A DNA stretch of 64,000 nucleotides, from contig JABHQR010000012.1 of NCBI GenBank assembly GCA_018696395.1, positions 11,841 to 75,840 on the forward strand. The letters are read 5' to 3'. Shown piece after piece: positions 7,459-29,071 of the stretch (the first letter of the stretch is position 1; the number at the start of each line of letters is the position of its first letter). The notes under the pieces were generated by a model. That model saw only the letters and a list, made by a program, of their open reading frames with translations, was not told the DNA's origin and searched no databases. This DNA is from an archaeon (GTDB taxonomy: Archaea > Nanobdellota > Nanobdellia > Woesearchaeales > GW2011-AR9). Made by a program: the position numbers and the translations under genes.

Positions 7459-7854
7459 TTATTTTAAATTATTAATCACTAATTCTTTGAAACCAGTTTG
7501 ATGATCAAACTCTCTTGAAAAATTAAATTTTTTTAATTCAATTATCACTATCTCGGCTGTTGTATGAATAATACAACCTTTTTTTAGATGTCCCCCAATT
7601 GTATGTCCTAAATTATCTGAAACTGAAATGTGGGTATGGTTTCCATCTTGTGATAAAGTACCAATTAAAGAAACAATTTCAAAATTACCCTTAAATAGTT
7701 TAACTTGTTCGTTAGATAACCTAACTGTTAATTTTTTTAAACTTCCCACGCAAGTTAAAATTGCCCCTGCTTGAATGTTTTTATCTTTAGAAAATTTATT
7801 TAATTCCTCTTTTAAATCTTGGTTGGGTTTTAATCTAATTGCATGAATTTCCAT
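7459..7854 (-). CDS. PPC/DUF296-domain protein (PD1-like DNA-binding fold)
   Basis: 131 aa with EIVSLIGTLSQDGNHTHISVSDNLGHTIGGHLKKGCIIHTTAEIVI, matching the DUF296 His/Gly-rich core. Confidence 0.55.
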   Translation of the reverse strand: MEIHAIRLKPNQDLKEELNKFSKDKNIQAGAILTCVGSLKKLTVRLSNEQVKLFKGNFEIVSLIGTLSQDGNHTHISVSDNLGHTIGGHLKKGCIIHTTAEIVIIELKKFNFSREFDHQTGFKELVINNLK

Positions 7855-11136: not shown

Positions 11137-11598
11137 TTGTTGGGGGTTAAAATGGACATTGTTGAAATGTTATATAAAAAAGCTGATCAAATATCAATTG
11201 ATGCATCTATAAAAGTTCAATTTATTAAAAATCTTGCAGGAAATATACATTCTATCAGAAAATTAGATGATGAAACTTTAAATTTATTATCAAATAATGA
11301 ACCTATTTTTGGTAAAAAGACAGGTTATTTGATTTTTTCTGCAAGGAGTGATATTTTGGATGTAGCGGAACATTATAGTGTAGTTCATAATCTCTCTGAG
11401 TGTGGTGACCCTTTATGTCAAAAAATTATTAATAACCTACATAATGATGAGTCGGTTGGTATTTTTGATATATTAATAAATTCTCCAATACCTTCTCAAA
11501 TGATATTAAGGACAATGCCTGGGGAGGATTATGATTCTTATCTTAACGGTGAAAAATCAATAACTGGTCCCGGAACAAAAGAATATTTTTTAAAATAA
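11137..11598 (+). CDS. hypothetical protein
   Basis: 153-aa ORF with an SD-like GGGGGT upstream. No family recognised. Confidence 0.4.
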   Translation: MLGVKMDIVEMLYKKADQISIDASIKVQFIKNLAGNIHSIRKLDDETLNLLSNNEPIFGKKTGYLIFSARSDILDVAEHYSVVHNLSECGDPLCQKIINNLHNDESVGIFDILINSPIPSQMILRTMPGEDYDSYLNGEKSITGPGTKEYFLK

Positions 11599-11632
11599 AT
11601 TTTAACTAATTGCAAAAAAAGAGGTATGATAA

Positions 11633-12715
11633 ATGGAAACAGAACAAGAAAATAATATCCCAGAAAATCAAGAGATCAAAAAAGAATTAACTTCAATGCA
11701 AATCACTGAAGAAATTGTTTCTGAATTGATTAAACCTAATGCTTATAATCATGAAATTAATATGCCTGTAAAAGTTATCAGAACTGCAGTATCAATAGTA
11801 TTTCTTACCGGTAGTTATGCTTACAAGATTTGTAAACCAGTAAATTTTGGATATTTAGATTTTTCTACTTTAGAGAAAAGAAAAAAATCTTGCACTGATG
11901 AATTAGAATTAAACAAATTAATTTCTCCTGAATTATATGTAAATATAATTACAATTAATAAGGCTGAAAATGGTGAATTATTTGTCAATGGTGAAGGAGA
12001 AATTGTTGAATATGCAATCAAGATGAAACAGGTGGATAATAATCAAATAATGTCCAGCTTGTTAAGTAAAGATGAAGTTACTTCTGAACATGTTAAAAAA
12101 TTAGCAAATATTATTTACGATTATCATAAAGTTGCTAAAACTAGCCCAGAAATTTCTGAATATGGTTCTTTGAGTGGTGTAAAACTAAACTGTGATGAAA
12201 ATTTTGAACAAACTGATAAATATAAAGAAAAAATTATTAGTTATGAAGATTTCAATGTTATCAAAGAAAAAGTTAACAAATTTATTTCTGAAAATAAAGA
12301 ACTGTTTGAAAAAAGAGTTATTGAAAATAAAATCAAACATTGTCATGGTGATTTTCATTCGGGAAATGTATTTATTGTAAATGGTGAACCAATCATTTTT
12401 GATGCAATTGTGTTCAATAAAAGATTTCCTTGCTCAGACATTATTGCGGAAATTGCTTTCATGGCAATGGACTTAGATTATCATGGTAAACATAACTTGG
12501 CAGAAGAGTTTATTGCAACATATTGTCATTTAAGTCAGGATGAAGATATTTACAAATTGTTAAATTTCTATCTTTCTTATCGTGCTTATGTTAGGGGTAA
12601 AGTAAATTGTTTCATTTCGGATGATTCTAAACTTGACGAGAACACTAGGAATGATATTCTCTTTGGTGCAAAGAAATATTTTAATTTAGCTAAAAAATAT
12701 GCCGAGAAGTTTTGA
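11633..12715 (+). CDS. aminoglycoside-phosphotransferase-fold (APH/ChoK/MtnK-like) small-molecule kinase
   Basis: Catalytic-loop motif HCHGDFHSGNVFI and downstream DAIVFNKRFPCSDIIAEIAFMAMDLDY (metal-binding D...D). Lies next to SAH hydrolase, so a methylthioribose-kinase-like role is conceivable but unproven. Confidence 0.55.
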   Translation: METEQENNIPENQEIKKELTSMQITEEIVSELIKPNAYNHEINMPVKVIRTAVSIVFLTGSYAYKICKPVNFGYLDFSTLEKRKKSCTDELELNKLISPELYVNIITINKAENGELFVNGEGEIVEYAIKMKQVDNNQIMSSLLSKDEVTSEHVKKLANIIYDYHKVAKTSPEISEYGSLSGVKLNCDENFEQTDKYKEKIISYEDFNVIKEKVNKFISENKELFEKRVIENKIKHCHGDFHSGNVFIVNGEPIIFDAIVFNKRFPCSDIIAEIAFMAMDLDYHGKHNLAEEFIATYCHLSQDEDIYKLLNFYLSYRAYVRGKVNCFISDDSKLDENTRNDILFGAKKYFNLAKKYAEKF

Positions 12716-12728
12716 ATTATTATGTTCT

Positions 12729-13547
12729 TTATTTTTTTGTAAATATATATCTGCGTGTCATTCCCATTGAGAATGGGGCGTAGAATAATTTATCTTGTTC
12801 AGAAAAAATACAAGTGTAGTTTCTTTTTTTCATTTCTTCATTTAATTCATTATTGTCTTCAGATGGATTTATAATAATAATTGAACAAAAATTCAATTCT
12901 TCATTAAAATATCTTGTTTCTAAAAAATCAGTAACACTATGGCCCCCCTTTATAATTAAGGTATAATCATCTTTATTAAAGTCATTATCTTGTCGAGTTA
13001 TATTTGCGTCTCCATTTATTATTTGAATTTTTTGCTTATAATTATCACTTAAAATTTCTGCTTTATGCAAAGTTGAAAATATTTTATTAATTTTTTCTTC
13101 TTGATAACTACAACTTCCCCACCACATATTTTTAACAAAATCTTGATTATAACTAATATCCTCAAAAATAATTTCATCAAAGATCTTTGTCCAGTAAAAA
13201 TCTGTTCCTGCAAAAGGATAATAAGCTTTCTTTTGGCATTTTTCAGGTAAATTTAATTTAATTTTTTCTAATTGTTCTGATAAATATTTCATAGCCGGGA
13301 ATCCTTCTTGGGTTTCAAGTTTTTCTAGTTGGCTATAAGCAGATAAATATTTTTTCCAAGAAGGTAAATCACGCCATTGAATTGCTACATATTCATCCAC
13401 TTCACCTTTTTTGACCATAGAAATAAGAGCAAAAAAGCCATTAATTGGGTGTTTAACACACCATCTCAATGCTTCAATTTGGGATTTTTTGTGAGCTGAT
13501 TGAATAATCTCTTCTAATGCAATTCTTTTATCTGATTTTTTAAACAT
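12729..13547 (-). CDS. hypothetical protein, last gene of the HIT-DHH gene string
   Basis: 272-aa ORF, 8 nt downstream of the DHH gene on the same strand. No known motif. Confidence 0.45.
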   Translation of the reverse strand: MFKKSDKRIALEEIIQSAHKKSQIEALRWCVKHPINGFFALISMVKKGEVDEYVAIQWRDLPSWKKYLSAYSQLEKLETQEGFPAMKYLSEQLEKIKLNLPEKCQKKAYYPFAGTDFYWTKIFDEIIFEDISYNQDFVKNMWWGSCSYQEEKINKIFSTLHKAEILSDNYKQKIQIINGDANITRQDNDFNKDDYTLIIKGGHSVTDFLETRYFNEELNFCSIIIINPSEDNNELNEEMKKRNYTCIFSEQDKLFYAPFSMGMTRRYIFTKK

Positions 13548-13555
13548 ATTAATAC

Positions 13556-14599
13556 CTACTTTTTAATAATGTGCTTTCTGACTTTTTCAATAAACAATTC
13601 TTTCTCTTGTTGATAATTCTCTAAATTAGTATCTTGACTTGTGGGGAATCCTCCAAAATCGACTCTTCCTCCTCCATTTTGTGAACTAAGAAAATTTAGT
13701 ATATCAAATTTTTCTTGATCTCCTTTATACAATAACCATATATTATTTACTGGTTTTCCAAAAACTAAAACGTAAATGTCTTGATTTTTGTCCCCTGTTA
13801 AATTAGTCATATTTCTTATGGTTGTTTTTTGAGGAAGAATGGGATCTGCATAACTTACTAATATTTTTAATCCTTGTGCTTGATACTGTTCTAAATTTTG
13901 TTCAATATATTGTAATGCTTTTTTTTCTTTTAGTTGATATGACTCCAAAGACATTACTAAATCTCTTGATATTTTTTCATCAATAAACCAACTTTCTTTT
14001 TTACCTAACTTTTTTGCAAGTATCTCTAATGAATTATTGTCCATATTACTATTGTGTAAAGATATAATTTTAGTTAATTGTTGGGAAATTAACTGGTCTT
14101 TTTCTGTTGCTTTTGTTTTTTTATAATCATCAATCTGTGCTAAGTGACTTAACCAATTAGCATAATCATTTCCATGTAAAAAATGTTGATAAACTAATCT
14201 TGATGTGCATAATTCTTCTCCATTATCATCTATTAAATTAGTTCCAAATGTAACCACTTTTTCTTTTAAATTTAATGTTCTTTGGTGGTGATCAATCCAT
14301 GTTGAGCTTATTGGTTGTTCCAATAACTTTCTTATTACTCTTTCGCCTTCTTTGTTTCTATGGTTATAAATCAAATCACTAAGGGCTAAATCCAATATAT
14401 AGGTATGCTTAGAATTGAGGTTTGGTTGATCACTAATTTGTTCTAATAAATTTAATTTATTATCGTGGGTAAAAAATAAAATTTCTCTATCTTGGTCTTC
14501 CAATTGTTTTAACATCAATGCACCAGAAACAATGCCATCTATATCTTCCCCGTGTGTTATGATTATGGATTTTTTAGGTTGAATTATTGCTGGCGCCAC
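13556..14599 (-). CDS. DHH-superfamily phosphoesterase (NrnA/RecJ-like catalytic core)
   Basis: Motifs ITHGEDIDGIVSGAL (DxD...S) and WIDHHQRT (DHH) read directly. Length 347 aa. Confidence 0.65.
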   Translation of the reverse strand: MAPAIIQPKKSIIITHGEDIDGIVSGALMLKQLEDQDREILFFTHDNKLNLLEQISDQPNLNSKHTYILDLALSDLIYNHRNKEGERVIRKLLEQPISSTWIDHHQRTLNLKEKVVTFGTNLIDDNGEELCTSRLVYQHFLHGNDYANWLSHLAQIDDYKKTKATEKDQLISQQLTKIISLHNSNMDNNSLEILAKKLGKKESWFIDEKISRDLVMSLESYQLKEKKALQYIEQNLEQYQAQGLKILVSYADPILPQKTTIRNMTNLTGDKNQDIYVLVFGKPVNNIWLLYKGDQEKFDILNFLSSQNGGGRVDFGGFPTSQDTNLENYQQEKELFIEKVRKHIIKK

Positions 14600-14659
14600 T
14601 AATTAGTCACTTGCCAGTAACTATTATATAAGCCTTTCTAAGAAAAAGGATGATTTATC

Positions 14660-15742
14660 TTATTTTTTTATTTTTTGAAATCTACCAATAGCTCTTTGAA
14701 TCTCTTCTTCAGCTGTTTTTGGTTTTACAGTTTTAGAATCTGTTTTATTTATGCTAGTTGCATTTTGTATTGCAATTGGGGTTTGTACTTTAGGTTCAGA
14801 TTTAACACTTTCCTTCTTCTCTTCAAATTTAACATTCCAAGTTTTATCTTTAATTTTACTAGCAATACTGTCTAAATCATAATCTGGTTGTTTTGGTTGC
14901 CAATTAATACTTTTCAAATTATCATCTTGTTTTCTTGGTAAAATATGAACACATAATTTTCCTTCTGGATTGTCATCAGATTCTCCTGATTTTAAGATTA
15001 TGTTAGTTCCATGAGCTCCAAGCCCTTCAAATACTGCTGTTGCGGCGAAAGAAGCAACATAAAATAAATGTGAAGCAGATTCAATATCTAATTTTTCAAA
15101 ATATTTTTCTTCTTCTTTACTATAAATTTCAATATGTCCTTCAGCAACACAATTTTCATCAATGACTGCTAATGTTTTTTCATCCTCATAAACAATAGTA
15201 CTGTTTTCTTTAATAGATTTTAAAAAATTTGGTATTTCACCAATTCCTTTATGCCAATTTGCTGGATTTCTACCAAAATGATTTTTCATCATTATTGGTA
15301 AATTGTTTGCTATCATGGATTTACTTTTTTCTGAAGTTTGATGTTTTTTCTTAAACAAAAAATTGAAGAAACCATCTCCTTTTTCTCTCGGTAAAAAATG
15401 TATCAAGAAATGGGGTGCTTGTTGACCTGCAACCCCACCATTAGCAACAAATATGTTCATTCCTGTTGTTACCATTGCTTTTTTGATACTAGTGGTAAGT
15501 TGGGCTGTAATACCAAAGAAATGTTTAAATTCGTTTGCTGGGATGTATGGCATTATTGGATAATGTTCTTTTGGTAAGAATATTGTATGGCCTTTTAAAA
15601 TTGGATTGATATCCAACATGGCCATTGTAACTTTATCTTCATAAACTTTTTTTGGAGGGATCTCTCCTTTAATAATTTTACAGAATACACATTGTTTCTT
15701 TTGCTCTTCCAACTGTGCTTTCATTTCTGGAGTGATATTCAT
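14660..15742 (-). CDS. tandem HINT-like (HIT family) domain protein with Lys-rich C-terminal tail
   Basis: N-terminal CVFCKIIKGEIPPKKVYEDKV...GHTIFLPKEH...IFVANGGVAGQQAPHFLIHFLPR is a classic HINT layout. A second, degenerate HIT-like repeat (AVIDENCVAEGHIEIY...GTNIILKSGES...KLCVHILPRK) follows. The first domain has HxLxH in place of the canonical HxHxH triad. Confidence 0.6.
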   Translation of the reverse strand: MNITPEMKAQLEEQKKQCVFCKIIKGEIPPKKVYEDKVTMAMLDINPILKGHTIFLPKEHYPIMPYIPANEFKHFFGITAQLTTSIKKAMVTTGMNIFVANGGVAGQQAPHFLIHFLPREKGDGFFNFLFKKKHQTSEKSKSMIANNLPIMMKNHFGRNPANWHKGIGEIPNFLKSIKENSTIVYEDEKTLAVIDENCVAEGHIEIYSKEEEKYFEKLDIESASHLFYVASFAATAVFEGLGAHGTNIILKSGESDDNPEGKLCVHILPRKQDDNLKSINWQPKQPDYDLDSIASKIKDKTWNVKFEEKKESVKSEPKVQTPIAIQNATSINKTDSKTVKPKTAEEEIQRAIGRFQKIKK

Positions 15743-15771
15743 TTTAAATATAATTTAGAAAATAAAAAAAA

Positions 15772-16692
15772 TTATTTCTTCTTATGTTTTTCAACTTCTT
15801 TTGTTAAGTTAAGTTTCTTAATAAGTTCCTTATACCTATTCCTAATAGTAACTTCGGTAACTCCAGCGACATCTGCAACTTCACGTTGAGTACGTTTTTC
15901 TCCATGAATTAAACTTGCTACGTACAATGCTGCTGCTGCAATCCCCGTTGGACCTCGGCCAGAAGTTAATTCAACTTTTCTTGCCATCTCCAATATCTCT
16001 ACTGATTTAGATTGGGTTTCTGGACTTAATTTTAAAGCAGATGCAAACCTTGGGATATAATCACTAGGGTTACTTGGTCTGATGCTGATTTCAAGTTCTC
16101 TAGTAATGAATCTGTAAGTTCTTCCAATTTCTTTCTTTTCAATACCTGAAGCTTCTCCCATCTCATCTAATGTTCTTGGAACTTCGTGACGTCTACACGC
16201 GGCGTACAATGCTCCTGCAACTACTGATTCCATACTTCTTCCACGAACAAGTCCCCGTTGTACTGCTAATCTATATATTCTTGCAGCTTCTTCTTCAACT
16301 TGTTTAGGTAATTTTAAGAACGAACTTACTCTTTTAAGTTCTGCTAAAGCAACTTTTAAGTTTCTTTCAATGGCAGTACTAATTCTATATTGCCATTTTC
16401 TTAATCTGAAAAATTTATCTTTGTCTTTCCCACCTAATTTATAATAATCAGATGAACTTCCAATCTCTGTTCCAAGGCCTTGGTCGTATGATGTATGTGA
16501 ACTTGGGGCTCCTGTTCTTCTTTTTGATGGACCTGTGTCATCGTCAAATTCTCTCCATTCTTGTGAGAAGTCAACCATTCGATCTTCAATGACTAGTCCG
16601 CACTCTCTACATACAGTTTCTCCCTTTTCTCGATTATGAAAAATATTTTTACTGCCGCAATCTGGGCATTCTTTAAGCTTTTTCTTTAGCAT
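15772..16692 (-). CDS. tfb: transcription initiation factor IIB (TFB)
   Basis: N-terminal zinc ribbon CPDCGSKNI...CRECGLV, two cyclin-like repeats, 306 aa. Confidence 0.9.
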   Translation of the reverse strand: MLKKKLKECPDCGSKNIFHNREKGETVCRECGLVIEDRMVDFSQEWREFDDDTGPSKRRTGAPSSHTSYDQGLGTEIGSSSDYYKLGGKDKDKFFRLRKWQYRISTAIERNLKVALAELKRVSSFLKLPKQVEEEAARIYRLAVQRGLVRGRSMESVVAGALYAACRRHEVPRTLDEMGEASGIEKKEIGRTYRFITRELEISIRPSNPSDYIPRFASALKLSPETQSKSVEILEMARKVELTSGRGPTGIAAAALYVASLIHGEKRTQREVADVAGVTEVTIRNRYKELIKKLNLTKEVEKHKKK

Positions 16693-17906: not shown

Positions 17907-18455
17907 ATGGACATTGAAAGAATTCAAAAAATTAACAATTTAGCACTTGACTTAATGAGGCAAGGTTTAGCAAAAGATAAGGACGATGCTATCACTCAAG
18001 CAGAAAAAATATTTCGGCATGATCCAGACGATTATAATTCAGTTTCTCGTGATATGCACAGTAATAGTTTACAAGTAAAACAAGGTCAAGAAGAAAGTAA
18101 TGTATCTGAAAATTCTGACAAAGGTAAAGGATCAAAAGAACAATCTGAATTAACACAGGAAAAGATTGAATCTATTCTTGAACGGAACACTAAATATGTA
18201 GTAACAAAATTAAAAGAGTTTAATGATAAGGTTGAAAAATTGGAATCTGAAATGACTAGTTTGAAAATGGAAGTTAATAGGTGTAGGAGTTCAATGACTT
18301 CAATGCAACAAAGACCCGTTCAGCAACAGCAGCCAGTACAACAACCAACTCAACAATCGGCTAAACAAAATTCTAACAGTTCTCATCCAAGATCTGGTGG
18401 TTATGAGGAACAAGATGTTTCAATAGAAAAGTTTTTTTATGCTGGGAGTAAGTAA
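17907..18455 (+). CDS. hypothetical coiled-coil protein with Gln/Pro-rich C-terminal segment
   Basis: 182 aa with a heptad-like region (KLKEFNDKVEKLESEMTSLKMEVNR) and a QQRPVQQQQPVQQPTQQ stretch. SD GAGGTGG upstream. Confidence 0.45.
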   Translation: MDIERIQKINNLALDLMRQGLAKDKDDAITQAEKIFRHDPDDYNSVSRDMHSNSLQVKQGQEESNVSENSDKGKGSKEQSELTQEKIESILERNTKYVVTKLKEFNDKVEKLESEMTSLKMEVNRCRSSMTSMQQRPVQQQQPVQQPTQQSAKQNSNSSHPRSGGYEEQDVSIEKFFYAGSK

Positions 18456-18624: not shown

Positions 18625-20103
18625 ATGAATCTAAAATATTTTTCAATAATTTTACTAATAACATCTATCTTTTTTGTTAGTTCAGTATTAGCTGATGTAA
18701 CTGTTTCAGATGATGATCTTATTTTTGAAGTGGATTATTCTGAGCTAGAAGATAATGATGATGAAATTATAATAACTCATTCAATTAATTTTGAAAATAA
18801 TGGGTCTTCTATGGAATCTGTAACTTTAACATTATTTGCTGAAGATAATGATTACGAAGTTAGTTTTGTGGACACTAATGATGATAATTTTGATTTAGAA
18901 AGTGGCAGCAGTAAAACTGTTGAATTAGAAATAATTAAGCAAGTTGAAGGCGCAGATCAAGGTTCAGATGAAAATGTTGTTTCAATTTTAATAGAAACAA
19001 CTTCTGGTCAAAGTGAAGAAATCTTGTTAGATGCAGATATTTTAATGATGTTTGAGTTAAAATCTATCGATTTTTATGTTAATAGTTATTCAATTGAAAC
19101 CATGGACGAAGATGATAGTGATGATGATGATAAAGATTTAGAAATTCAACCTAACGATTTTGTTGAACTTGGGTTTGAAATTGAAAATTTGTTTGATTCT
19201 AATTTTGATGAAGGAGATTTAGATTTTACAGTTACTATCACTTTGGAAGATAACGATTTTGGTGAAGATGTTGATGACGATATTGATTTTACAATTGATG
19301 CTGATGACAGTATTGATGTTGATGACGATGAATATTTTATTGGTTTTGAAGTTCCCTCTTTTGCAGAACCAAACGAGGAGTACATTTTAAACATTTTAGT
19401 TGAAGCAGAAGATGGTAATAATGTTGCGTATTCAGTGGAGTGGGAAGCTCAATTAGAACTAGATCGGGAAGATGATGATTTAAGAATTGAAGAAGTAACT
19501 TCTAATAATGATGATGTTTCATGTTATAGGTCAATAAGATTAACTATTGATGTTCTTAATTATGGGACAGATAGTCAGAAATATGGTATTTTAACAATTA
19601 ATAATAATGAATTAAGTATTGGTTTGGAACAAGAATTTGAAATTGGTGAAGGCCTAGATGAAAGTGGTAACTCAATTACTTTACAAGAAACTTTTGAAAT
19701 TTCAAGTGATGTAGGGGCAGGAACTTATGAACTTGACATTGATGTGTATTATAACAATGATGATTTTAGTGATACTGAAACTTTTGAAATAATTATCACT
19801 GATTGCGATACAGGTGATTCTGATGAAGATGGCACTTCAACTGGAACAGAAGAAGAAATTTCAACTGAAGATAATGATACTGGGAGTTCAGATGAAGATG
19901 GTGGGACCACTACTGTCACTAACAATGAAGATGAAGAAGAATCTGGTAATTCTGTGACTAGTGATGATGAATTTAGTCCTGTTAACACAGTTGAAGAATC
20001 TTACTTAAAAGACCAATACGTTTTTGCTGCTGTAATTGTTGGGTCAGTATTAATATTGGCAATATTTGTGATGATTATTACAATGATAGCAACAAGGAAG
20101 TAA
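18625..20103 (+). CDS. highly acidic cell-surface protein (signal peptide, D/E-rich ectodomain, C-terminal TM anchor plus basic stop-transfer TRK)
   Basis: N-terminal MNLKYFSIILLITSIFFVSSVLA. More than 25% Asp+Glu. C-terminus YVFAAVIVGSVLILAIFVMIITMIATRK. No PGF motif. Confidence 0.6.
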   Translation: MNLKYFSIILLITSIFFVSSVLADVTVSDDDLIFEVDYSELEDNDDEIIITHSINFENNGSSMESVTLTLFAEDNDYEVSFVDTNDDNFDLESGSSKTVELEIIKQVEGADQGSDENVVSILIETTSGQSEEILLDADILMMFELKSIDFYVNSYSIETMDEDDSDDDDKDLEIQPNDFVELGFEIENLFDSNFDEGDLDFTVTITLEDNDFGEDVDDDIDFTIDADDSIDVDDDEYFIGFEVPSFAEPNEEYILNILVEAEDGNNVAYSVEWEAQLELDREDDDLRIEEVTSNNDDVSCYRSIRLTIDVLNYGTDSQKYGILTINNNELSIGLEQEFEIGEGLDESGNSITLQETFEISSDVGAGTYELDIDVYYNNDDFSDTETFEIIITDCDTGDSDEDGTSTGTEEEISTEDNDTGSSDEDGGTTTVTNNEDEEESGNSVTSDDEFSPVNTVEESYLKDQYVFAAVIVGSVLILAIFVMIITMIATRK

Positions 20104-20817: not shown

Positions 20818-21561
20818 ATGGTTAAAGATAAATCTGTTAAAAAAATATTAATCTCTGCGAAAGGCAAAAAGAAATATTATGTGACTCAACTCAATGAAGA
20901 TTTTATCACTACAGAAGGTGTTGTTAAGAGTTTAGATTTAAGTTCTGAAAAAGAATTTATTGAAACTGATAAAGGAAATAAATTCCATTTGATAAATCCT
21001 TCAATTATTGATCTGATGGAAAAATTGAATCGTGGTCCACAAATAATTCAACCAAAAGATATTGGCTTAATTATGTCAAAAACTGGCATTAACAAGAACT
21101 CTTTAGTTGTTGATGCTGGGGTTGGTTCTGGTACTTTATCTTTGGCATTAGCTAACATTTGTAAACAAGTTACTGCTTATGAAATTAATAATAAACATTT
21201 GAATATTGCACAGAAAAATAAAGAGTTATTTGGGGCAGAAAATCTTGAAATTAAAAAAGGTGATGTAGCTGAAGAAATGACTGAAACAAATCTTGATTTA
21301 ATAACTTTGGATTTACCGCACCCTTGGGAAGTTGTTCCAAAAGCAGAATTAGCATTAAAATTAGGGTCTTATCTTGTTGTATATTTACCTAACATTTTAC
21401 AAATGAAAAAGTTTGTTGAATCATTGAAAGGAAGTAAAATTAAACTTTTAGAAGTAATTGAACTTATTGAACGTAAATGGAAAGTTGAAGAGAGAATTGT
21501 TCGTCCAGAAACTGCAGAATTGTCTCACACTGCATTTATGGCATTTTGTAGAAAAATGTGA
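20818..21561 (+). CDS. trmI: tRNA (adenine57/58-N1)-methyltransferase TrmI (GCD14 family)
   Basis: SAM motif VVDAGVGSGTLSLALA and the family-specific LITLDLPHPWEVV. Confidence 0.75.
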   Translation: MVKDKSVKKILISAKGKKKYYVTQLNEDFITTEGVVKSLDLSSEKEFIETDKGNKFHLINPSIIDLMEKLNRGPQIIQPKDIGLIMSKTGINKNSLVVDAGVGSGTLSLALANICKQVTAYEINNKHLNIAQKNKELFGAENLEIKKGDVAEEMTETNLDLITLDLPHPWEVVPKAELALKLGSYLVVYLPNILQMKKFVESLKGSKIKLLEVIELIERKWKVEERIVRPETAELSHTAFMAFCRKM

Positions 21562-21587
21562 TTTTTTTAAAAACAATAAATTAAGGG

Positions 21588-22022
21588 GTGGTGAAAATGA
21601 AAGTTAAAATAAAGAGATTAAATTCTGAAGTGAAGTTACCCAATTATGCAAATCCTGGTGATGCTGGGATGGACTTTTTTTCTGCAGAAAATGTTATAAT
21701 TAATTCAGGTGAAAGAAAGACTGTAAAAACTGGAATTAGCATGGCAATTCCAGTGGGTTTTGTGGGTTTATTTTGGGACAAAAGTGGTTTAGCTTCTAAG
21801 AAAGGAATTAAAACTATGGCAGGTGTTATTGATTCTGGATTTCGTGGTGAGATTGGTATTGTATTAAAAAATTTAGGGGATGATGAGTTTGTTATTGAAA
21901 AGAATATGAAAATTGCTCAAATGCTAATTCAACCTATATACTCACCTGAATTAGAAGAAGTAGAATCTCTTGAAGAAACTGAACGAGGTCAAGGTGGATT
22001 TGGTAGTACTGGTCAATTCTGA
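21588..22022 (+). CDS. dut: dUTP diphosphatase (trimeric dUTPase)
   Basis: Motifs NPGDAGMDF, AGVIDSGFRGEIGIVLKNLG and C-terminal RGQGGFGSTG. Confidence 0.85.
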   Translation: MVKMKVKIKRLNSEVKLPNYANPGDAGMDFFSAENVIINSGERKTVKTGISMAIPVGFVGLFWDKSGLASKKGIKTMAGVIDSGFRGEIGIVLKNLGDDEFVIEKNMKIAQMLIQPIYSPELEEVESLEETERGQGGFGSTGQF

Positions 22023-22074: not shown

Positions 22075-22165
22075 GCCTCAGTGGCTTAGCGGTTAGAGCA
22101 TGCGAGAATTCAATTCCATGAAGCTGTTAACCGCAGGGTCGTAGGTTCAATTCCTACCTGAGGCG
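22075..22165 (+). tRNA. tRNA-Asn (anticodon GTT) with an 18-nt intron inside the anticodon stem (~position 30/31; intron 22105..22122)
   Basis: Hand fold: acceptor GCCTCAG/CTGAGGC plus G73, D arm GCTT-AGCGGTTA-GAGC, T arm GTAGG-TTCAATT-CCTAC. The only splice that restores a 5-bp anticodon stem (TGCGG/CCGCA) and a canonical loop gives CTGTTAA. Confidence 0.6.
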
Positions 22166-22953
22166 CTTAGGGGGAATTCAATTCCCCTATCTTTTAATAT
22201 TTTTATTCTTTCATTAACATCTGTTCCAACTGGCAAACTGCCTGTTTCTTTCCATATCTCATAACGGGTTAAGGTATTGTAATTTGAAAATCCAATATCT
22301 TTCATCCATTGATTTAGTTTTTTCTTTCCATTAATTTCAACAATATAAGCAATTATTTTTGTTTTTTTTCTTTCCCTTTCTAATGTTGTTGAGTAAAAAT
22401 AAAAACCAAGTTCTTTTAATAATTCCTTAACTGATTCATGTAATGTTTTGCTGTATGTCCAGAAATTAATTACTGGTTTTCTACCTTGATTTTTGAAAAC
22501 TAAACTGAAATCTGTATCTGCTAATCCTCTCAAGAAACTTTGTTTTGTTATTTTATTGGAATTTTTAATTATATCTGGGACCTTAATCTTAATCTTTGGG
22601 CTAAATGGAATTTCACAACATTTATTTAAAAATAAAACAATTGCCTTTGATCTAAAAGAAATCATAACTGTTTTGTTACCCTTTCTAACATTAACCTCTT
22701 TATTAAATAATTGTTTAATTAATGATTTTAAGAATTCTTCATAGAATTTCCTTTCATTAACTTCATGGCCATTATAATCTACTCTATAATCTATCTTGTT
22801 TTTTCTTCTTTCAATTTTCATATAACCATCCCCTATATGAAAACCTAAAAAATAAGCTAATTCTGGTGTGATAATTTCGGGAACTTTAATTCCTAATCTA
22901 ATGTCATTTTTACTAAATTCTACATGTGATAAATCAAATTTCACACATTTCAT
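22147..22953 (-). CDS. free-standing double-motif LAGLIDADG homing endonuclease
   Basis: Motif 1 ELAYFLGFHIGDGYM and motif 2 FLRGLADTDFSL. 268 aa. Its last 19 nt, including the stop, overlap the tRNA-Asn T arm on the opposite strand. Confidence 0.75.
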   Translation of the reverse strand: MKCVKFDLSHVEFSKNDIRLGIKVPEIITPELAYFLGFHIGDGYMKIERRKNKIDYRVDYNGHEVNERKFYEEFLKSLIKQLFNKEVNVRKGNKTVMISFRSKAIVLFLNKCCEIPFSPKIKIKVPDIIKNSNKITKQSFLRGLADTDFSLVFKNQGRKPVINFWTYSKTLHESVKELLKELGFYFYSTTLERERKKTKIIAYIVEINGKKKLNQWMKDIGFSNYNTLTRYEIWKETGSLPVGTDVNERIKILKDRGIEFPLSASGRN

Positions 22954-25150: not shown

Positions 25151-25948
25151 ATGGCTGAAGAGATTTCTGAAGAACAAAGGAAACAGATGGAAGAAAAGTT
25201 GAAAAACATGTCTCCTGAAGAGATTGCAGAACTTCAGAAACAGCAATGTATTTTCTGCCAAATTATATCTGGCCAAATACCATCTAAAAAAGTTTATGAA
25301 GATAATGTGTGTATTGTGGTATTAGATATTAACCCTGCGTCATCTGGGCATTGTTTAATACTTCCTAACCAACATTATGCTATCATGCCACAAGTTCCAG
25401 AAACTGAACTAAACCATATGTTTAAAGTTTCTAAAGCAATGTCTCAAATTCTTTTGAAAAGTATGAGGGCAAAAGGAACAAATATTTTTGTAGCTAATGG
25501 CGCTGCTGCTGGTCAAAAAGCACCTCATTTTATGATACATTTAATCCCTCGTAAAGATGATGATGGTTTATTTAATTATGAAACAAAAATAATTGAATCT
25601 GAAATTAGGGAAAAGATTGGACAAGCTGTTAAAATGAAATTTAATCAGCTGATGGGGATCAAAGTTGAAACTCAAACTGAATTGCCTGAACATCAAGAAG
25701 AAGTTTCTGGGGATGAACCAGATAAAATTGAAAAGTTAGATGATTTGGCTGGTCCTTCTGAAAATCAAGAAGATGTTGATAATAAAGAATCTGATGATAA
25801 TGATGATGATTCAGATAGTGAAGATGAAGATTCAGAAGGATCTGATCAAGAAGAAAATGATTCTAAAGATGTGGGAGATGATGAACCTGAACCACTTAAA
25901 GATGATGTTGATGCAAGTTTAGATGATATTGCTAACTTGTTCAAATAA
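25151..25948 (+). CDS. HINT-like HIT-family protein with long acidic C-terminal tail
   Basis: CIFCQIISGQIPSKKVYEDNV...GHCLILPNQH...IFVANGAAAGQKAPHFMIHLIPR, then a tail of ~90 residues rich in D/E/S. Triad reads HxMxH. Confidence 0.7.
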   Translation: MAEEISEEQRKQMEEKLKNMSPEEIAELQKQQCIFCQIISGQIPSKKVYEDNVCIVVLDINPASSGHCLILPNQHYAIMPQVPETELNHMFKVSKAMSQILLKSMRAKGTNIFVANGAAAGQKAPHFMIHLIPRKDDDGLFNYETKIIESEIREKIGQAVKMKFNQLMGIKVETQTELPEHQEEVSGDEPDKIEKLDDLAGPSENQEDVDNKESDDNDDDSDSEDEDSEGSDQEENDSKDVGDDEPEPLKDDVDASLDDIANLFK

Positions 25949-25969
25949 TATAAATAAAAAACAAATAAA

Positions 25970-26512
25970 ATGAATTGTGAATATTGTGAAATAATCTCTG
26001 GAAATCAAAAAGCTAACATTATTTATCAAGATGATGAAATATTAGCTTTTGTTAAAGAAGAAGTTATTTCTCCAGGTCAGATAACTGTGATCCCTATTGA
26101 ACATTTAACTATTCTTGAAATGGTTCCTGGAAAAATTTTAGACAAAATGTTTACTGTTGCTAACAAACTAAGTATGGCCATATTTGAAACTATGGGATGT
26201 CATGGGACAAACATTTTTGTTGAAAATGGTCTTGGTGGTGGTCAAACTGTACCTCACTTTTCATTACATGTCATTCCTAGGTATGAAAATGATAATTTGA
26301 AACTTAACTGGGTGCCTCAACAAGTTCTTCCTGAAGATTTGGAAAATGATTTCATTCAAATACAAATGAATGCTGAAGGGTTAACTATTTCTGATGAAAT
26401 TCCCTCTGAAGAAAGTGAAGATATCGTTGTTGATGAAGGTGACACTGAAGTTGTTCTGAAAAAGCAAGATGATGAAAATTATTTACTTAAGTCACTTAGA
26501 AGGCGGGCTTGA
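25970..26512 (+). CDS. HINT-like HIT-family protein
   Basis: CEYCEIISGNQKANIIYQDDEILAF...IPIEH...IFVENGLGGGQTVPHFSLHVIPR. Triad reads HxSxH. 21 nt after the preceding HINT gene. Confidence 0.65.
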   Translation: MNCEYCEIISGNQKANIIYQDDEILAFVKEEVISPGQITVIPIEHLTILEMVPGKILDKMFTVANKLSMAIFETMGCHGTNIFVENGLGGGQTVPHFSLHVIPRYENDNLKLNWVPQQVLPEDLENDFIQIQMNAEGLTISDEIPSEESEDIVVDEGDTEVVLKKQDDENYLLKSLRRRA

Positions 26513-26584: not shown

Positions 26585-29071
26585 ATGGAAATTAAGTTTT
26601 ATCCTTACGATTTTGAGTACAAAGTTAAAGAAGAAAAGACTTATGTTTACATATATGCTAAATTAGATACAAGTAAAAAAGTTTGTGTGATCTACCCATA
26701 TGTCCCTTATTTTTATGCAGATATCAAAAACATTGACACTAAAGAGCTTAAAGAAAGGTTGAACAAACTTGATTTAAATGTTTATGGAAAAAAAATTAAA
26801 GTACTTTATTGGGAAGAAGTAGAAAAAGAACTTCTTGGTGAAAAAAAGAAATTCTGGAAAATATCAGTCAATTTTCCTCAATCAGTTCCAGTGTTAAGCA
26901 AAGAGTTAGAAAGTTGGGGTGTAGAAACTTTTGAAAAAGATATTCCTTTTATTCATCGATTCTTAAGAGATCACCAAATTAGTCCTTTAACTTTACTTAG
27001 GGCTAAAGGTGAACAAGTAGATGATAAAACTATGCGTGTTCCAGTATTCTTAGCAACAGAAATAAAAACATTTAGTAAAGAAATAACTAACAAACTAAAA
27101 TATTTGGCTGTTGATATTGAAACATATTCCAAAACTAGGTCCATTAATCTTCATAAAAACCCCATTTTAATGATTGCTTTTTATGGTGAAGATGAAGAAG
27201 GTAAAGTTTTCAAAAAAGTAATTACTTGGAAAAAAATCAATCATGATTTAAAATATCTTGAAATTGTTAGTGATGAATCTGTTTTAATTGAAAGATTTAG
27301 AGAAATCATTTTTGATTATGATCCAGACATTATCACTGGATATTTTTCAGATGGGTTTGATTTTCCATACCTTAAAATTAGGGGTGATAAATTTAAAATT
27401 AAATTAGATATTGGTTTAGACCGATCTGAGATGTTTACTGGAAGGAAAACTGGTCTTAAAAATAGTGAATCTAAAATTAAAGGAATTCTTCATTTAGATA
27501 TGTTTAAATTTGTTAGATACATATTTGGTGGTAATTTGAAAACTGATTCATATTCATTAGATTCTGTATCAAATGAATTGTTAGGATTAAGAAAACATGA
27601 TGTTGACATATCTAAACTTTATCTCCATTGGGATAAGAATAATTCAAAAGAACTGGAAGAATATTGTAAATATAATCTTCAAGATGCTGAAATAACTTTA
27701 CAACTTTGCAAAAAATTATTTTTTGATATGGTGGAATTTTCAAAAATTATTAGTTTACCCCTTTTTGATGTTACCAGGATGAGGTTTAGTAGATTAGTAG
27801 AAAATTATATCTTAAATAGAAGTAAAGAATACAATGTTATTGCTCCTAATCGACCAAAAAATAACGAAATTGAAAAACGTTATGAAGAAACTTATCAAGG
27901 TGCATTTGTTTATGAACCTACTCCTGGTCTGTACGATGACATTTTAGTTTTTGATTTTCGTTCACTTTACCCCACTATTATTACTGCACATAATATTGGG
28001 CCAGAATCTTTATATTGCAAATGCTGTGAAGAAGATAAAAGTGCAAGGGTTGAAGAAAGGGAAGAATATTGGTTTTGTAAAAAAAATAAAAAATTTATCC
28101 CTGAAGTTTTAGAAAGAATAGTGTTAATGAGGATTGATCTGAAAAGGTTGATCAAAGAATTAAAATCTAAAAAAGCAGATGAAAAAGAAATTAAAATATT
28201 AGAATCAAGATCTTATGCATTAAAAATTTTAGCTAACAGTTTTTATGGGTATTTAGGTTTTTTTGGAGCAAGGTGGTATTGTGTAGAATGTGCTAGGTCA
28301 ACTGCTGCTTATGCTCGTTATTATATCAAAAGAACTATCAAGAAAGCTGAAGAAAAAGGATTTAAAGTTATTTATGGTGATACTGACTCTTTGTTTTTGT
28401 TAAAAGGTGATAAGGACATTTCTCAAGCAAAAGAATTCATGAACGAGATTAATTTTGATCTCCCAGGTTATATGGAATTAGAATTTGAAGGACATTTTCC
28501 TCGAGGTATTTTTGTTGCTATTAAAGGTACTAATAAAGGTGCCAAAAAGAAGTATGCAATGATTAATGGTCAAGGAGACATTACAATTAAAGGTTTTGAA
28601 ACTGTTAGAAGGAACTGGAGTTTTATCGCTAAAGAAGTTCAAGAAAAAGTGTTGGGTTTAGTCTTATCTGGGAAAGAAGATGAAGCATTACCTTACTTAA
28701 AAGATGTGATTGATAAACTTAACAAAGGTAAAATCTCAGTAGATAAATTGATTATTAAAACTCAAATCACTAAAGATCTTTCTAGTTATACTTCTATTGG
28801 ACCTCATGTTGCTGTTGCAAAAAAAATGAAAGAGATGGGGGATGATATTGGGCCAGGAACTATCATTGAATATGTGATCTCTAAAGGGTCTGGTTTGATT
28901 AGGGATAAAGCTAAATTACCTGATGAAATTAAGGACGGTGAATATGATCCAAATTATTATCTTAAGAACCAATTAATCCCTGCAGTGGCAAGTATCTTTT
29001 TAGTAATGGGGATTAAAGAAGAAGATTTCTTCAAAGCAAATGAACAGACTAGCTTAGGAAAGTTTGGTTAA
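26585..29071 (+). CDS. polB: family-B DNA polymerase
   Basis: Motif A DFRSLYPTII, motif C YGDTDS, N-terminal 3'-5' exonuclease region. 828 aa. Confidence 0.9.
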   Translation: MEIKFYPYDFEYKVKEEKTYVYIYAKLDTSKKVCVIYPYVPYFYADIKNIDTKELKERLNKLDLNVYGKKIKVLYWEEVEKELLGEKKKFWKISVNFPQSVPVLSKELESWGVETFEKDIPFIHRFLRDHQISPLTLLRAKGEQVDDKTMRVPVFLATEIKTFSKEITNKLKYLAVDIETYSKTRSINLHKNPILMIAFYGEDEEGKVFKKVITWKKINHDLKYLEIVSDESVLIERFREIIFDYDPDIITGYFSDGFDFPYLKIRGDKFKIKLDIGLDRSEMFTGRKTGLKNSESKIKGILHLDMFKFVRYIFGGNLKTDSYSLDSVSNELLGLRKHDVDISKLYLHWDKNNSKELEEYCKYNLQDAEITLQLCKKLFFDMVEFSKIISLPLFDVTRMRFSRLVENYILNRSKEYNVIAPNRPKNNEIEKRYEETYQGAFVYEPTPGLYDDILVFDFRSLYPTIITAHNIGPESLYCKCCEEDKSARVEEREEYWFCKKNKKFIPEVLERIVLMRIDLKRLIKELKSKKADEKEIKILESRSYALKILANSFYGYLGFFGARWYCVECARSTAAYARYYIKRTIKKAEEKGFKVIYGDTDSLFLLKGDKDISQAKEFMNEINFDLPGYMELEFEGHFPRGIFVAIKGTNKGAKKKYAMINGQGDITIKGFETVRRNWSFIAKEVQEKVLGLVLSGKEDEALPYLKDVIDKLNKGKISVDKLIIKTQITKDLSSYTSIGPHVAVAKKMKEMGDDIGPGTIIEYVISKGSGLIRDKAKLPDEIKDGEYDPNYYLKNQLIPAVASIFLVMGIKEEDFFKANEQTSLGKFG

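Follow-up and report, generated by a model that had tools for sequence, protein, structure and literature searches.

A nucleophile-less tandem HIT protein and a neighbouring DHH/DHHA1 phosphoesterase gene in a Woesearchaeales genome

What is known about the proteins that most resemble those encoded at this archaeal locus? Tandem HIT-like half-domains occur naturally within one chain in galactose-1-phosphate uridylyltransferase (GalT), where only one of the halves carries the active-site motif and the nucleophilic His (HxHxQ) is kept. Other HIT-fold proteins act without hydrolysis, via a ligand-bound state or by partnering in a dimer, as seen for avian ASW/HINTW and the signalling-competent FHIT H96N mutant. 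HIT proteins form obligate dimers, and both annotation and interpretation normally treat them as nucleotide hydrolases. The second His of their HxHxHxx motif is the nucleophile and forms a nucleotidyl-His intermediate; in Hint-type proteins, a CxxC motif, the His of a GH motif and the first His of the triad make up a Zn site (PMC6354057). For the DHH phosphoesterases, the closest described systems are the stand-alone DHH/DHHA1 enzymes NrnA, TM1595, Borrelia DhhP, Rv2837c and the PAP phosphatase of M. thermolithotrophicus (8a8k), which share with the protein described here a two-domain architecture and a size of about 320-350 aa. On tandem or catalytically dead archaeal HIT proteins, our search of the literature found nothing specific.

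The features discussed here are collected in Table 1; the window is the whole stretch of 64,000 nucleotides that was analysed. Three minus-strand ORFs, encoding the tandem HIT protein (HIT-HIT), the DHH protein and a 272-aa protein, follow one another with gaps of 60 and 8 nt, as the preliminary description of this locus had it, and the public gene calls on the source contig agree with all three. Omitted from that description was a fourth co-directional gene, tfb, which lies 29 nt upstream of HIT-HIT.

Table 1. Features of the locus, with positions counted from the first nucleotide of the window
Feature	Position	Strand	Remarks
tfb (transcription factor B, 306 aa)	15772..16692	-	NF001658 match, 3e-124
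tfb to HIT-HIT spacer	15743..15771	-	T8 run 15764-15771 right after tfb stop; remainder A+T-rich
HIT-HIT gene	14660..15742	-	360 aa; tandem Hint-branch HIT domains
HIT domain 1 (residues 17-125)	15368..15694	-	Zn site and pocket residues kept; triad H111-F-L113-I-H115
HIT domain 2 (residues about 180-272)	14927..15205	-	HIT fold by profile; motif K262-L-C264-V-H266
HIT-HIT to DHH spacer	14600..14659	-	T5 run 14643-14647; TATA-like 'cttatataa' 14624-14632
DHH/DHHA1 phosphoesterase gene, stand-alone	13556..14599	-	347 aa, GTG start
272-aa protein gene	12729..13547	-	Start 8 nt past DHH stop codon; AGGT precedes
Split HIT paralogous pair HITa and HITb	25151..26512	+	About 10 kb from HIT-HIT

Each half of HIT-HIT, when scanned alone, exceeds the PF01230 gathering score of 21.5, the N-terminal half with 60.0 and the C-terminal half with 33.8 bits. 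We found 486 homologues at E<=1e-3, the best 120 of which are full length and 51-100% identical; all source-named homologues among these 120 are assigned to Woesearchaeota, Nanoarchaeota or 'archaeon', and HIT-HIT is a widespread Woesearchaeota protein. Besides the two HIT domains it has two linkers, a conserved one between the domains and a variable one of low complexity, and its C-terminal helix (E347-I348-x-x-A351-I352) is conserved as well. Peptides at the N-terminus, between the domains and at the C-terminus are conserved, and these segments are extra with respect to Hint-branch HIT proteins. As all PDB matches are of the Hint or Fhit type, no relation to GalT beyond the superfamily level was seen.

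Domain 1 can be aligned over its entire length to Hint-branch proteins, namely B. subtilis Hit (1y23), 3imi of B. anthracis and human HINT1 (E 3e-28 with the family profile). Common to all are the Zn site of CxxC and two His residues, the D-I contact to the ribose, the G-Q loop and the third triad His. Among the best 120 of the 486 homologues, the Zn ligands, as identified by sequence, are present in 119 (C18, C21) or all 120 (H52, H111), the ribose-binding Asp44 is invariant, and G106, Q107, H111 and H115 are likewise invariant or nearly so. The domain departs from the Hint branch, however, at two places, with Leu or Met instead of the middle His and Gln at the equivalent of Ser107. In the alignment to 1y23 and 3imi, it is L113 that stands opposite the middle His; across the same 120 homologues this position is L in 90, M in 17, S and G in 4 each and Y and I in 1 each, and never His, and 109 of them carry Gln or Arg at the Ser107 equivalent.

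Domain 2 has diverged further, and of the Hint-branch features it has lost the Zn site, the first two His of the triad and, in most homologues, the ribose Asp. It lacks the CxxC motif and carries K or R at the position of the first His, the ribose Asp is replaced by Pro in 93 of the 120 homologues, and the nucleophile position is Cys in 57, V, S, E, I or A in the other 63 and His in none. The fusion itself and the HIT-like nature of its second, degenerate half thus stand as the preliminary description had them. Its implied contrast to an intact first copy does not, since in all 120 homologues neither half has the nucleophilic His, and the phosphoramidate or adenylate hydrolysis of HINT enzymes cannot be carried over to this protein. 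Judged by these residues, HIT-HIT is not a Hint member in the enzymatic sense. ASW/HINTW and FHIT H96N are eukaryotic single-domain proteins, whereas here the loss of the nucleophile is fixed throughout a large family of archaea, and in the two halves of a fusion alike.

The same loss is shared by a split paralogous pair near polB. HITa (265 aa, triad HFMIH) is 52% identical to domain 1 of HIT-HIT, and domain 2 finds its best match in HITb (180 aa, triad HFSLH); 21 nt separate the two genes, and the pair ends 72 nt upstream of polB (26585-29071). By their triads, both proteins are of the same nucleophile-less HIT type as HIT-HIT. When genome and metagenome contigs were scanned with the HIT-HIT alignment, the search patterns coincided with the widespread CxFCK motif, so that bacterial HIT genes of the canonical single-domain type made up most of the matches listed; these served as a control set. 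A few true relatives and the split pairs were also among the matches listed.

What could such a protein do? With the middle nucleophilic His missing from both halves, HIT-HIT is probably a binder and not a hydrolase; as the Zn site and the ribose-binding Asp44 are kept and the nucleophile is gone, it looks competent for binding, without canonical hydrolysis. We envisage a covalently fused HIT pseudo-dimer, which would reproduce in one chain the dimer that other HIT proteins form. The N-terminal half keeps the structural Zn site and the nucleoside-holding residues of Hint, with Leu or Met at the nucleophile and Gln at the Ser107 equivalent, and the C-terminal half retains only the fold. Most probably, a nucleotide or nucleotidyl conjugate, of the AMP-X or ApnA type, would then be bound in the one pocket without turnover, in a sensor or adaptor role for which the conserved terminal peptides would provide docking sites. 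The integrity of the pocket is read here from aligned residues, and the side chain of L113 or Met could occupy the phosphate site, which would count against ligand binding.

If this hydrophobic residue does fill the phosphate site, HIT-HIT may bind no ligand at all and be purely structural, with the HIT fold as an interaction platform. The complete degeneration of domain 2 and the resemblance of the conserved N-terminal, inter-domain and C-terminal peptides to docking motifs fit such a scaffold; however, D44-I45, G106-Q107 and H115, the residues lining the nucleotide pocket of Hint, are invariant, and as this is hard to explain without a ligand, we regard a pure scaffold as unlikely. Less probable again is an enzyme of non-canonical type, in which H115 or H111 would activate water, or Cys264 would act as nucleophile at a composite site. 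The very high overall conservation of HIT-HIT, the near-invariance of H111, H115, D44, G106 and Q107 and the frequent Cys at the nucleophile position of domain 2 would agree with this, but that position is occupied by other residues in more than half of the homologues, H111 is already accounted for as a Zn ligand (PMC6354057), residue 113 is hydrophobic, most homologues carry Gln or Arg at the Ser107 equivalent, and domain 2 of most members is without the ribose-binding Asp. The non-catalytic binder is thus the reading of HIT-HIT that we retain.

The 347-aa protein has its metal-binding motifs in place. Its Pfam scores are sub-threshold, at 25.3 for DHH (gathering 28.1) and 13.3 for DHHA1 (gathering 25.9). 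Its AF2 model (pLDDT 95.3, pTM 0.92), however, matches DHH/DHHA1 structures over the full length in Foldseek, with a probability of 1.00 and E-values down to 2.9e-12, the matches including NrnA, TM1595, DhhP and PAP phosphatase. Relatives were found by an exhaustive HMMER search, a word-index homology search having returned the protein alone, and 44 of 60 relatives match Pfam DHH at E<=0.01. With residue roles taken from NrnA (PMC5593865), DHH motifs I-IV are intact: H16, D19, D70, D103-H104-H105 and D158 are invariant in the 60 relatives and D21 is kept by at least 90% of them, so that all two-metal motif residues of the stand-alone enzymes are kept at an identity to these of just 10-18%.

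The DHHA1 domain, in contrast, deviates from these enzymes. The GGGH motif is absent, with G309-G-G-R312...G316-G-F in its stead; G309 is invariant, G310, G311 and R312 are found in at least 90% of the 60 relatives, and R312 is aligned with the His of the GGGH motif of 6mtz. The substrate-contacting His is thus replaced by Arg (GGGR) throughout the subfamily, and an RxRxR motif is not evident. From its modelled structure and its invariant motifs, we take the protein to be a true member of the DHH/DHHA1 two-domain phosphoesterase family, in agreement with the assignment made in the preliminary description. It is a predicted active two-metal phosphoesterase of the NrnA, pApA phosphodiesterase or pAp phosphatase type, which would act on short 5'-phosphorylated nucleotides.

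The 272-aa protein, left unassigned in that description, has no Pfam, NCBIfam or PDB sequence match. In its low-confidence model (pLDDT 66, from 4 input sequences), a helical domain at the N-terminus (about residues 1-100) is followed by a C-terminal alpha/beta domain with class I methyltransferase-like topology, and a motif, YYPFAGTD(F/M)YW, is invariant. A SAM-binding methyltransferase-like fold is therefore probable, if weakly supported. Compared with class I SAM-dependent methyltransferases such as the m1A22 tRNA methyltransferase TrmK, however, motif I reads Y-Y-P-F-A-G-T-D and not GxGxG, there is no profile match, and the helical domain of about 100 aa is extra. Homology to the methyltransferases which adjoin HIT-HIT in two relatives (L003, L004) was considered and rejected, the hhalign probability being below 10% and not significant.

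Do these genes belong together? In the synteny count, for which 11 relatives were informative, the only conserved neighbour is tfb, which in 10 of the 11 lies on the same strand and upstream of HIT-HIT. This adjacency is part of a larger conserved block, U492-U182-tfb-HIT-HIT...SAHH-GatD, and in several relatives other ORFs are interposed between tfb and HIT-HIT. A DHH relative adjoins HIT-HIT in only 1 of 11, the closest well-sampled relative (L001/L002), where it lies upstream, between tfb and HIT-HIT, and thus on the opposite side to here; it is 27% identical and of the same GGGR subfamily, so that some association between DHH and HIT-HIT is possible. The best DHH homologue lies on a 1.6-kb contig with an unrelated gene as sole neighbour and gives no context information. 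The 272-aa gene is next to HIT-HIT in none of the 11, its 3 homologues all being in other contexts. As the neighbours differ in relatives, co-directionality and short gaps are here not evidence of a conserved operon, and the operon that the preliminary description had drawn from them is not conserved.

The spacers are in line with this. The TATA-like box in the 60-nt gap is located at -33..-25 from the GTG start of the DHH gene, and TATA-like octamers before ORF starts in the window are enriched at -35..-26 (12 of 40 matches in 2 of 20 bins). Together with the T5 run it points, albeit weakly in a genome of 29% G+C, to separate transcription of HIT-HIT and DHH. The spacer between tfb and HIT-HIT, with its T8 run, may act as a terminator or promoter, all such promoter and terminator assignments being weak where the genome is this rich in A+T. 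DHH and the 272-aa gene alone, with AGGT in the short gap between them, look co-transcribed.

With a confidence slightly better than even, we therefore favour two unrelated units, a non-catalytic HIT-HIT binder and a separate DHH/272-aa insert. HIT-HIT would be a backbone gene of Woesearchaeota-type DPANN, placed downstream of tfb in the larger syntenic block; DHH and the 272-aa gene would form a lineage-specific insert, a two-gene unit transcribed from a promoter of its own and situated at a variable site that separates HIT-HIT from the gene for SAH hydrolase. Could this insert be a horizontally acquired mobile or defence cassette, such as a signal-nucleotide-degrading or anti-virus module? 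Its patchy distribution in singleton clusters, its position in a variable region with two further lineage-specific ORFs and a weak PHROG match of DHH (3e-6) would suit this origin. PADLOC, however, has no match for DHH, the 272-aa protein or the adjacent ORFs, a scan of viral contigs gave no relative of the 272-aa protein, and no compositional anomaly, integrase or repeats were seen. For the HIT proteins PADLOC returns just a generic HIT (ThsC) match, and PHROGs contain only generic HIT and DHH families. With matches that are generic or missing altogether, a defence system is unsupported, and we consider an acquired cassette very unlikely. Least probable of all is the original proposal of a single operon, a nucleotide or nucleic-acid end-processing module of an active HINT-type hydrolase, a DHH esterase and a third protein, for which speak the short gaps between co-directional genes, the same-subfamily DHH relative beside HIT-HIT in L001/L002 and the nucleoside-salvage genes (PfkB, PNP-PRT fusions, SAHH) that recur nearby in relatives, but against which stand the missing nucleophile of both HIT halves, the synteny of DHH in a single case on the other side and of the 272-aa gene in none, and the T-run and TATA-like box inside the 60-nt gap.

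Returning to the two-unit scenario, its HIT-HIT part has consequences for how such proteins are viewed. A large and strongly conserved archaeal family is annotated 'HIT family protein', COG0537, yet is without the residue that does the chemistry, and metabolic reconstructions of such genomes should not score the gene as a phosphoramidase. If HIT-HIT binds without hydrolysis, it would offer a natural model for the long-debated signalling by ligand-bound FHIT and HINT1, and DPANN archaea, whose regulatory repertoire is very small, would gain a candidate regulator. As an improbable conjecture, which we rank below the non-canonical enzyme and above the acquired cassette, the nucleophile-less HIT proteins of Woesearchaeota, HIT-HIT behind tfb and HITa/HITb before polB, might sense nucleotides or adenylates without catalysis and dock onto the core information-processing machinery, the tail of HITa copying the hydrophobic spacing of the C-terminus of ribosomal stalk aP1, a binder of aEF1A and aEF2. 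If true, archaea would have an equivalent of what has been proposed for FHIT and HINT1, namely signalling that does not depend on hydrolysis. The GGGR subfamily of DHH proteins, for its part, is a candidate for the missing nanoRNA- or pAp-degrading enzyme of such reduced genomes.

The tandem HIT protein of the window (HIT-HIT) belongs to a family in which the catalytic histidine is missing from both halves. Pfam HIT matches the protein in two stretches, and each half is recognized separately, residues 1-140 at 60.0 bits and residues 141-311 at 33.8 bits, against a gathering score of 21.5; the tandem arrangement proposed in the preliminary description is thus real, its degenerate C-terminal copy included. 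In Hint enzymes, the second histidine forms the covalent nucleotidyl-His intermediate, and a structural zinc is bound by the first histidine, a CxxC motif and the histidine of the GH motif (PMC6354057). Aligned to 1y23, 3imi and 3l7x, HIT-HIT places APHFLIHFLPR opposite VFHYHMHIIPR, with the domain 1 triad at H111-F-L113-I-H115 and leucine at the middle-histidine position, an assignment found again with the family profile. Among the best 120 homologues, which are 51-100% identical over their full length and, where named, come from Woesearchaeota, Nanoarchaeota or an 'archaeon', position 113 is never histidine (0/120; L in 90, M in 17, S and G in 4 each, Y and I once each). Retained are the zinc-site residues (C18 and C21 in 119/120, H52 and H111 in 120/120) as well as D44 (120/120), I45 (118/120), G106 (118/120), Q107 (120/120) and H115 (119/120); at the position of HINT1 Ser107, 109/120 have Gln or Arg. 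Domain 2, with the motif K262-L-C264-V-H266, has K or R at the first triad position in 89 of these homologues, C (57), V (23), S (13), E (12), I (5) or A (5) at the nucleophile position, a third histidine in 108 and Pro at the ribose-Asp position in 93; CxxC is absent from this domain in the alignment of 120.

Judged from sequence, neither half of HIT-HIT has the catalytic histidine, and the protein is under strong purifying selection. The phosphoramidate or adenylate hydrolysis previously attributed to it by analogy with HINT is therefore not transferable. Of 181 HIT domains in loci retrieved with the same patterns, which serve as a control, 150 carry canonical HxHxH and the others all belong to the HIT-HIT family or its split paralogues; ordinary HIT proteins are also encoded by the relatives, such as HVHVH in a 143-aa gene of locus L004. 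As the 120 homologues lack the nucleophile and the controls are canonical, the loss is ancient, fixed and clade-specific.

A second nucleophile-less HIT set, split into two genes (HITa and HITb) 21 nt apart, lies about 10 kb from HIT-HIT, upstream of polB. HITa and domain 1 share 52% identity, the N-terminal peptide included, and domain 2 finds its best match in HITb (32%, E 3e-20), with which it has the 'NW-P-Q' segment in common. Further archaeal contigs (L096, L097, L012 and L095) likewise encode HITa and HITb side by side, with HxMxH in HITa (HxLxH in L095) and HxSxN, HxMxN or more degenerate triads in HITb. HIT-HIT thus joins covalently a heterodimer that is elsewhere encoded by two genes; the split pairs support a pseudo-dimer reading of HIT-HIT and show that nucleophile loss predates fusion or fission. 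Near polB, L098 and L100 carry a canonical HIT within a few kb and L104 a non-canonical one (HVRID). HITa ends in an acidic linker of ~110 aa followed by L-D-D-I-A-N-L-F-K (window 25900-25948), and the orthologous tails read ...LDSISRLFGK, ...FNKIGDMFK and ...FDKIKKMFD (L096 at ~7570-7612; ORFs of L097 and L012). The tail hydrophobics, counted from Phe (Phe, then -1, -4 and -7), have the spacing of L100, L103, L106 and F107 in the tail of the ribosomal stalk protein aP1, where L103, L106 and F107 bind aEF1A and aEF2 (PMC4267659), and HITa may carry a mimic of this tail. In HITb orthologues, a charged linker leads to a conserved C-terminal peptide, E-(E/D)-N-Y-L-(L/V)-(K/R)-(S/Q)-L-(R/K)-R-x-(P/A) (window 26470-26512; L096, L012, L095).

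Coordinates of features in the window and in loci from relatives (L numbers)
Feature	Locus	Positions	Strand	Remarks
360-aa and 153-aa ORFs	window	11137-12715	+	convergent on 272-aa gene
272-aa protein	window	12729-13547	-	ORF
DHH protein	window	13556-14599	-	347 aa, GTG start
HIT-HIT	window	14660-15742	-	360 aa
tfb (transcription factor B)	window	15772-16692	-	306 aa; NF001658 match at 3e-124
U182	window	17907-18455	+	182 aa, Q-rich coiled-coil
U492	window	18625-20103	+	492 aa, extremely acidic (D/E-rich); N-terminal signal-like segment, C-terminal hydrophobic anchor
Trm61-like methyltransferase and dUTPase	window	20818-22022	+	adjacent; conserved in relatives
LAGLIDADG_3 homing-endonuclease-like ORF	window	22147-22953	-	268 aa, E 6e-9; free-standing
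HITa	window	25151-25948	+	265 aa, triad HFMIH
HITb	window	25970-26512	+	180 aa, triad HFSLH
polB	window	26585-29071		HITb ends 72 nt upstream
tfb/HIT-HIT spacer with insert	L001	4369-5975		
tfb/HIT-HIT spacer with insert	L003	5819-5986		
tfb/HIT-HIT spacer with insert	L004	5371-5940		
tfb/HIT-HIT spacer with insert	L170	6666-6962		
tfb/HIT-HIT spacer with insert	L172	6492-6956		
Salvage genes beside HIT-HIT	L001	7621-10017		
Salvage genes beside HIT-HIT	L004	7055-8365		
Salvage genes beside HIT-HIT	L173	8737-10113		
Salvage genes beside HIT-HIT	L172	9460-11067		

ORF calling yields four co-directional ORFs on the minus strand (12729-16692), and the same genes are called on a 252-kb JGI metagenome contig identical to the window; G+C is 27-31% throughout, without a compositional break across the region. 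The successive gaps along the string tfb, HIT-HIT, DHH and 272-aa gene are 29, 60 and 8 nt, in agreement with the coordinates and spacing originally given for the last three genes. The tfb stop codon is followed by a T8 run, 21 A+T-rich bases and the HIT-HIT ATG. Within the 60-nt gap are a T5 run and, at -33..-25 relative to the DHH start, the sequence 'cttatataa'. The window has an excess of TATA-like octamers at -35..-26 relative to ORF starts (12/40 matches), which is compatible with short-leader archaeal promoters, though weak evidence in an A+T-rich genome. AGGT precedes the start of the 272-aa gene, 8 nt past the DHH stop codon. Most economically, HIT-HIT would be a unit by itself and DHH and the 272-aa gene a bicistron.

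Gene context was compared for HIT-HIT orthologues of 47-70% identity, with loci searched by tblastn with the window proteins. In 10 of 11 informative relatives (L001/2, L003, L004/5, L090, L092, L094, L170-173), all but L009, the tfb gene (83-94% identical) precedes HIT-HIT on the same strand, with 0-2 unrelated ORFs (55-340 aa) or unannotated spacers as long as 1.6 kb in between. This spacer is an insertion hot spot, with unrelated ORFs that differ between relatives. Both genes belong to a larger conserved block of U492, U182, tfb, HIT-HIT, a variable region, SAH hydrolase and GatD, in which U492 and U182 are syntenic with tfb across relatives at 26-47% identity; the link between HIT-HIT and tfb is positional only. 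Downstream of the Trm61-like and dUTPase genes lies a homing-endonuclease-like ORF.

The 272-aa gene is next to HIT-HIT in none of the 11 informative relatives, and a DHH relative adjoins HIT-HIT in one (L001/L002), upstream, in the tfb spacer, which in L001 also holds a 160-aa orphan. This relative is 27% identical and of the same subfamily, with H-x-x-D-x-D-G, DHH and GGGR. Three-gene synteny is essentially absent. The end-processing module formerly read into HIT-HIT, DHH and the 272-aa gene is unsupported. Between HIT-HIT and SAH hydrolase, the window has a lineage-specific region of ~3.5 kb with DHH, the 272-aa gene, a 360-aa kinase-like ORF and a 153-aa ORF; no relative has any of the four there, and the fetched loci lack them elsewhere too, apart from the DHH relative of L001/L002. 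For the 360-aa ORF, the aminoglycoside/choline-kinase-like (APH) match is weak, with E 0.011 in Pfam and 5.5e-4 in NCBIfam; the 153-aa ORF has no match, and the 272-aa protein has three detectable homologues (35-50% identical) on unrelated short contigs. Relatives carry fused nucleoside-salvage genes beside HIT-HIT (PfkB + PNP_UDP_1 + Pribosyltran in a 798-aa ORF; PNP + PRT, 436-458 aa; Cyclase + PfkB, 535 aa), with none at the equivalent window position.

The DHH protein scores 25.3 bits with Pfam DHH, below the gathering score of 28.1, and is marginal for DHHA1. A word-index search finds only the protein itself; an exhaustive search finds 149 cluster representatives at E<=1e-3 (74 at E<=1e-10), mostly of 320-350 aa and mostly metagenome singletons, the two named ones being from a Woesearchaeota MAG and an unclassified 'bacterium' MAG. 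In 60 aligned relatives, H16, D19, G22, D70, D103, H104, H105, D158 and G309 are invariant and D21, G310, G311, R312, G316, G317 and F318 at least 90% conserved, in correspondence with the two-metal site of NrnA (H20, D24, D26, D80, H103, H104, D156; PMC5593865). The DHHA1 GGGH motif, whose histidine contacts the substrate backbone in NrnA (PMC5593865), is GGGR in this subfamily, R312 lying opposite the histidine of 6mtz. An excellent AF2 model (pLDDT 95.3, pTM 0.92) is matched by Foldseek over the full length (E 3e-12 to 1e-9, 10-18% identity) with 6mtz of H. pylori, DhhP of Borrelia, the PAP phosphatase of M. thermolithotrophicus, the pApA phosphodiesterase TM1595 of T. maritima, NrnA, Rv2837c and archaeal RecJ/Cdc45. 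Motifs and model thus bear out the DHH assignment and define a divergent stand-alone DHH/DHHA1 phosphoesterase, predicted to be catalytically intact; by analogy, its substrate is most probably a short 5'-phosphorylated nucleotide (pAp, pNpN or nanoRNA). The 272-aa protein, as first described, is of no recognized family, without a match in Pfam, NCBIfam, PDB, PADLOC or PHROG. Its four family sequences have an invariant Y-Y-P-F-A-G-T-D-(F/M)-Y-W motif, then F/L-E-D where the following strand ends, and G-D/N later in the sequence. The AF2 model is of low confidence (pLDDT 66); its C-terminal 170 residues show the strand/helix order of class I methyltransferases, which tips the balance modestly towards a SAM-binding methyltransferase-like fold. 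DHH and the 272-aa gene would constitute an independent accessory cassette, whose role is probably to turn over and modify nucleotides or short RNA.

Beyond its HIT domains, HIT-HIT conserves an N-terminal peptide, M-x-(L/I)-(T/S)-P-E-x-x-x-Q-L-x-x-Q-K-K-x-C, an inter-domain segment, N147-x-P-x-x-M152-x-N-H155-F156-x-x-x-P160-x-x-W163-H164, and a segment past domain 2, W281-x-P-x-x-P-x-Y-D-L-D-S-I-x-x-K-I-K-D-x-x-W302, and ends in a variable low-complexity linker and a terminal helix, E347-I348-x-x-A351-I352. The conserved peptides look like putative docking elements. The fold assignments, the missing catalytic residues, the conservation and the synteny are established here; beyond them, we infer that HIT-HIT forms a HIT dimer within one chain, in which domain 1 would provide a single Zn-stabilized pocket, nucleotide-shaped yet non-catalytic, supported by the degenerate domain 2. 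The protein would bind, rather than hydrolyse, a nucleotide or nucleotidyl conjugate, and the conserved peptides could pass the binding signal to some partner. FHIT H96N and avian ASW are precedents for hydrolysis-independent HIT functions. Public annotation of the homologues reads 'HIT family protein', and no tandem or nucleophile-less archaeal HIT family is described in the searched literature. HIT-HIT is a variant within the known HIT superfamily and not a new kind of system. Its mechanism is one we infer; to a HIT specialist, the notable point is the family-wide loss of the nucleophile from both halves.
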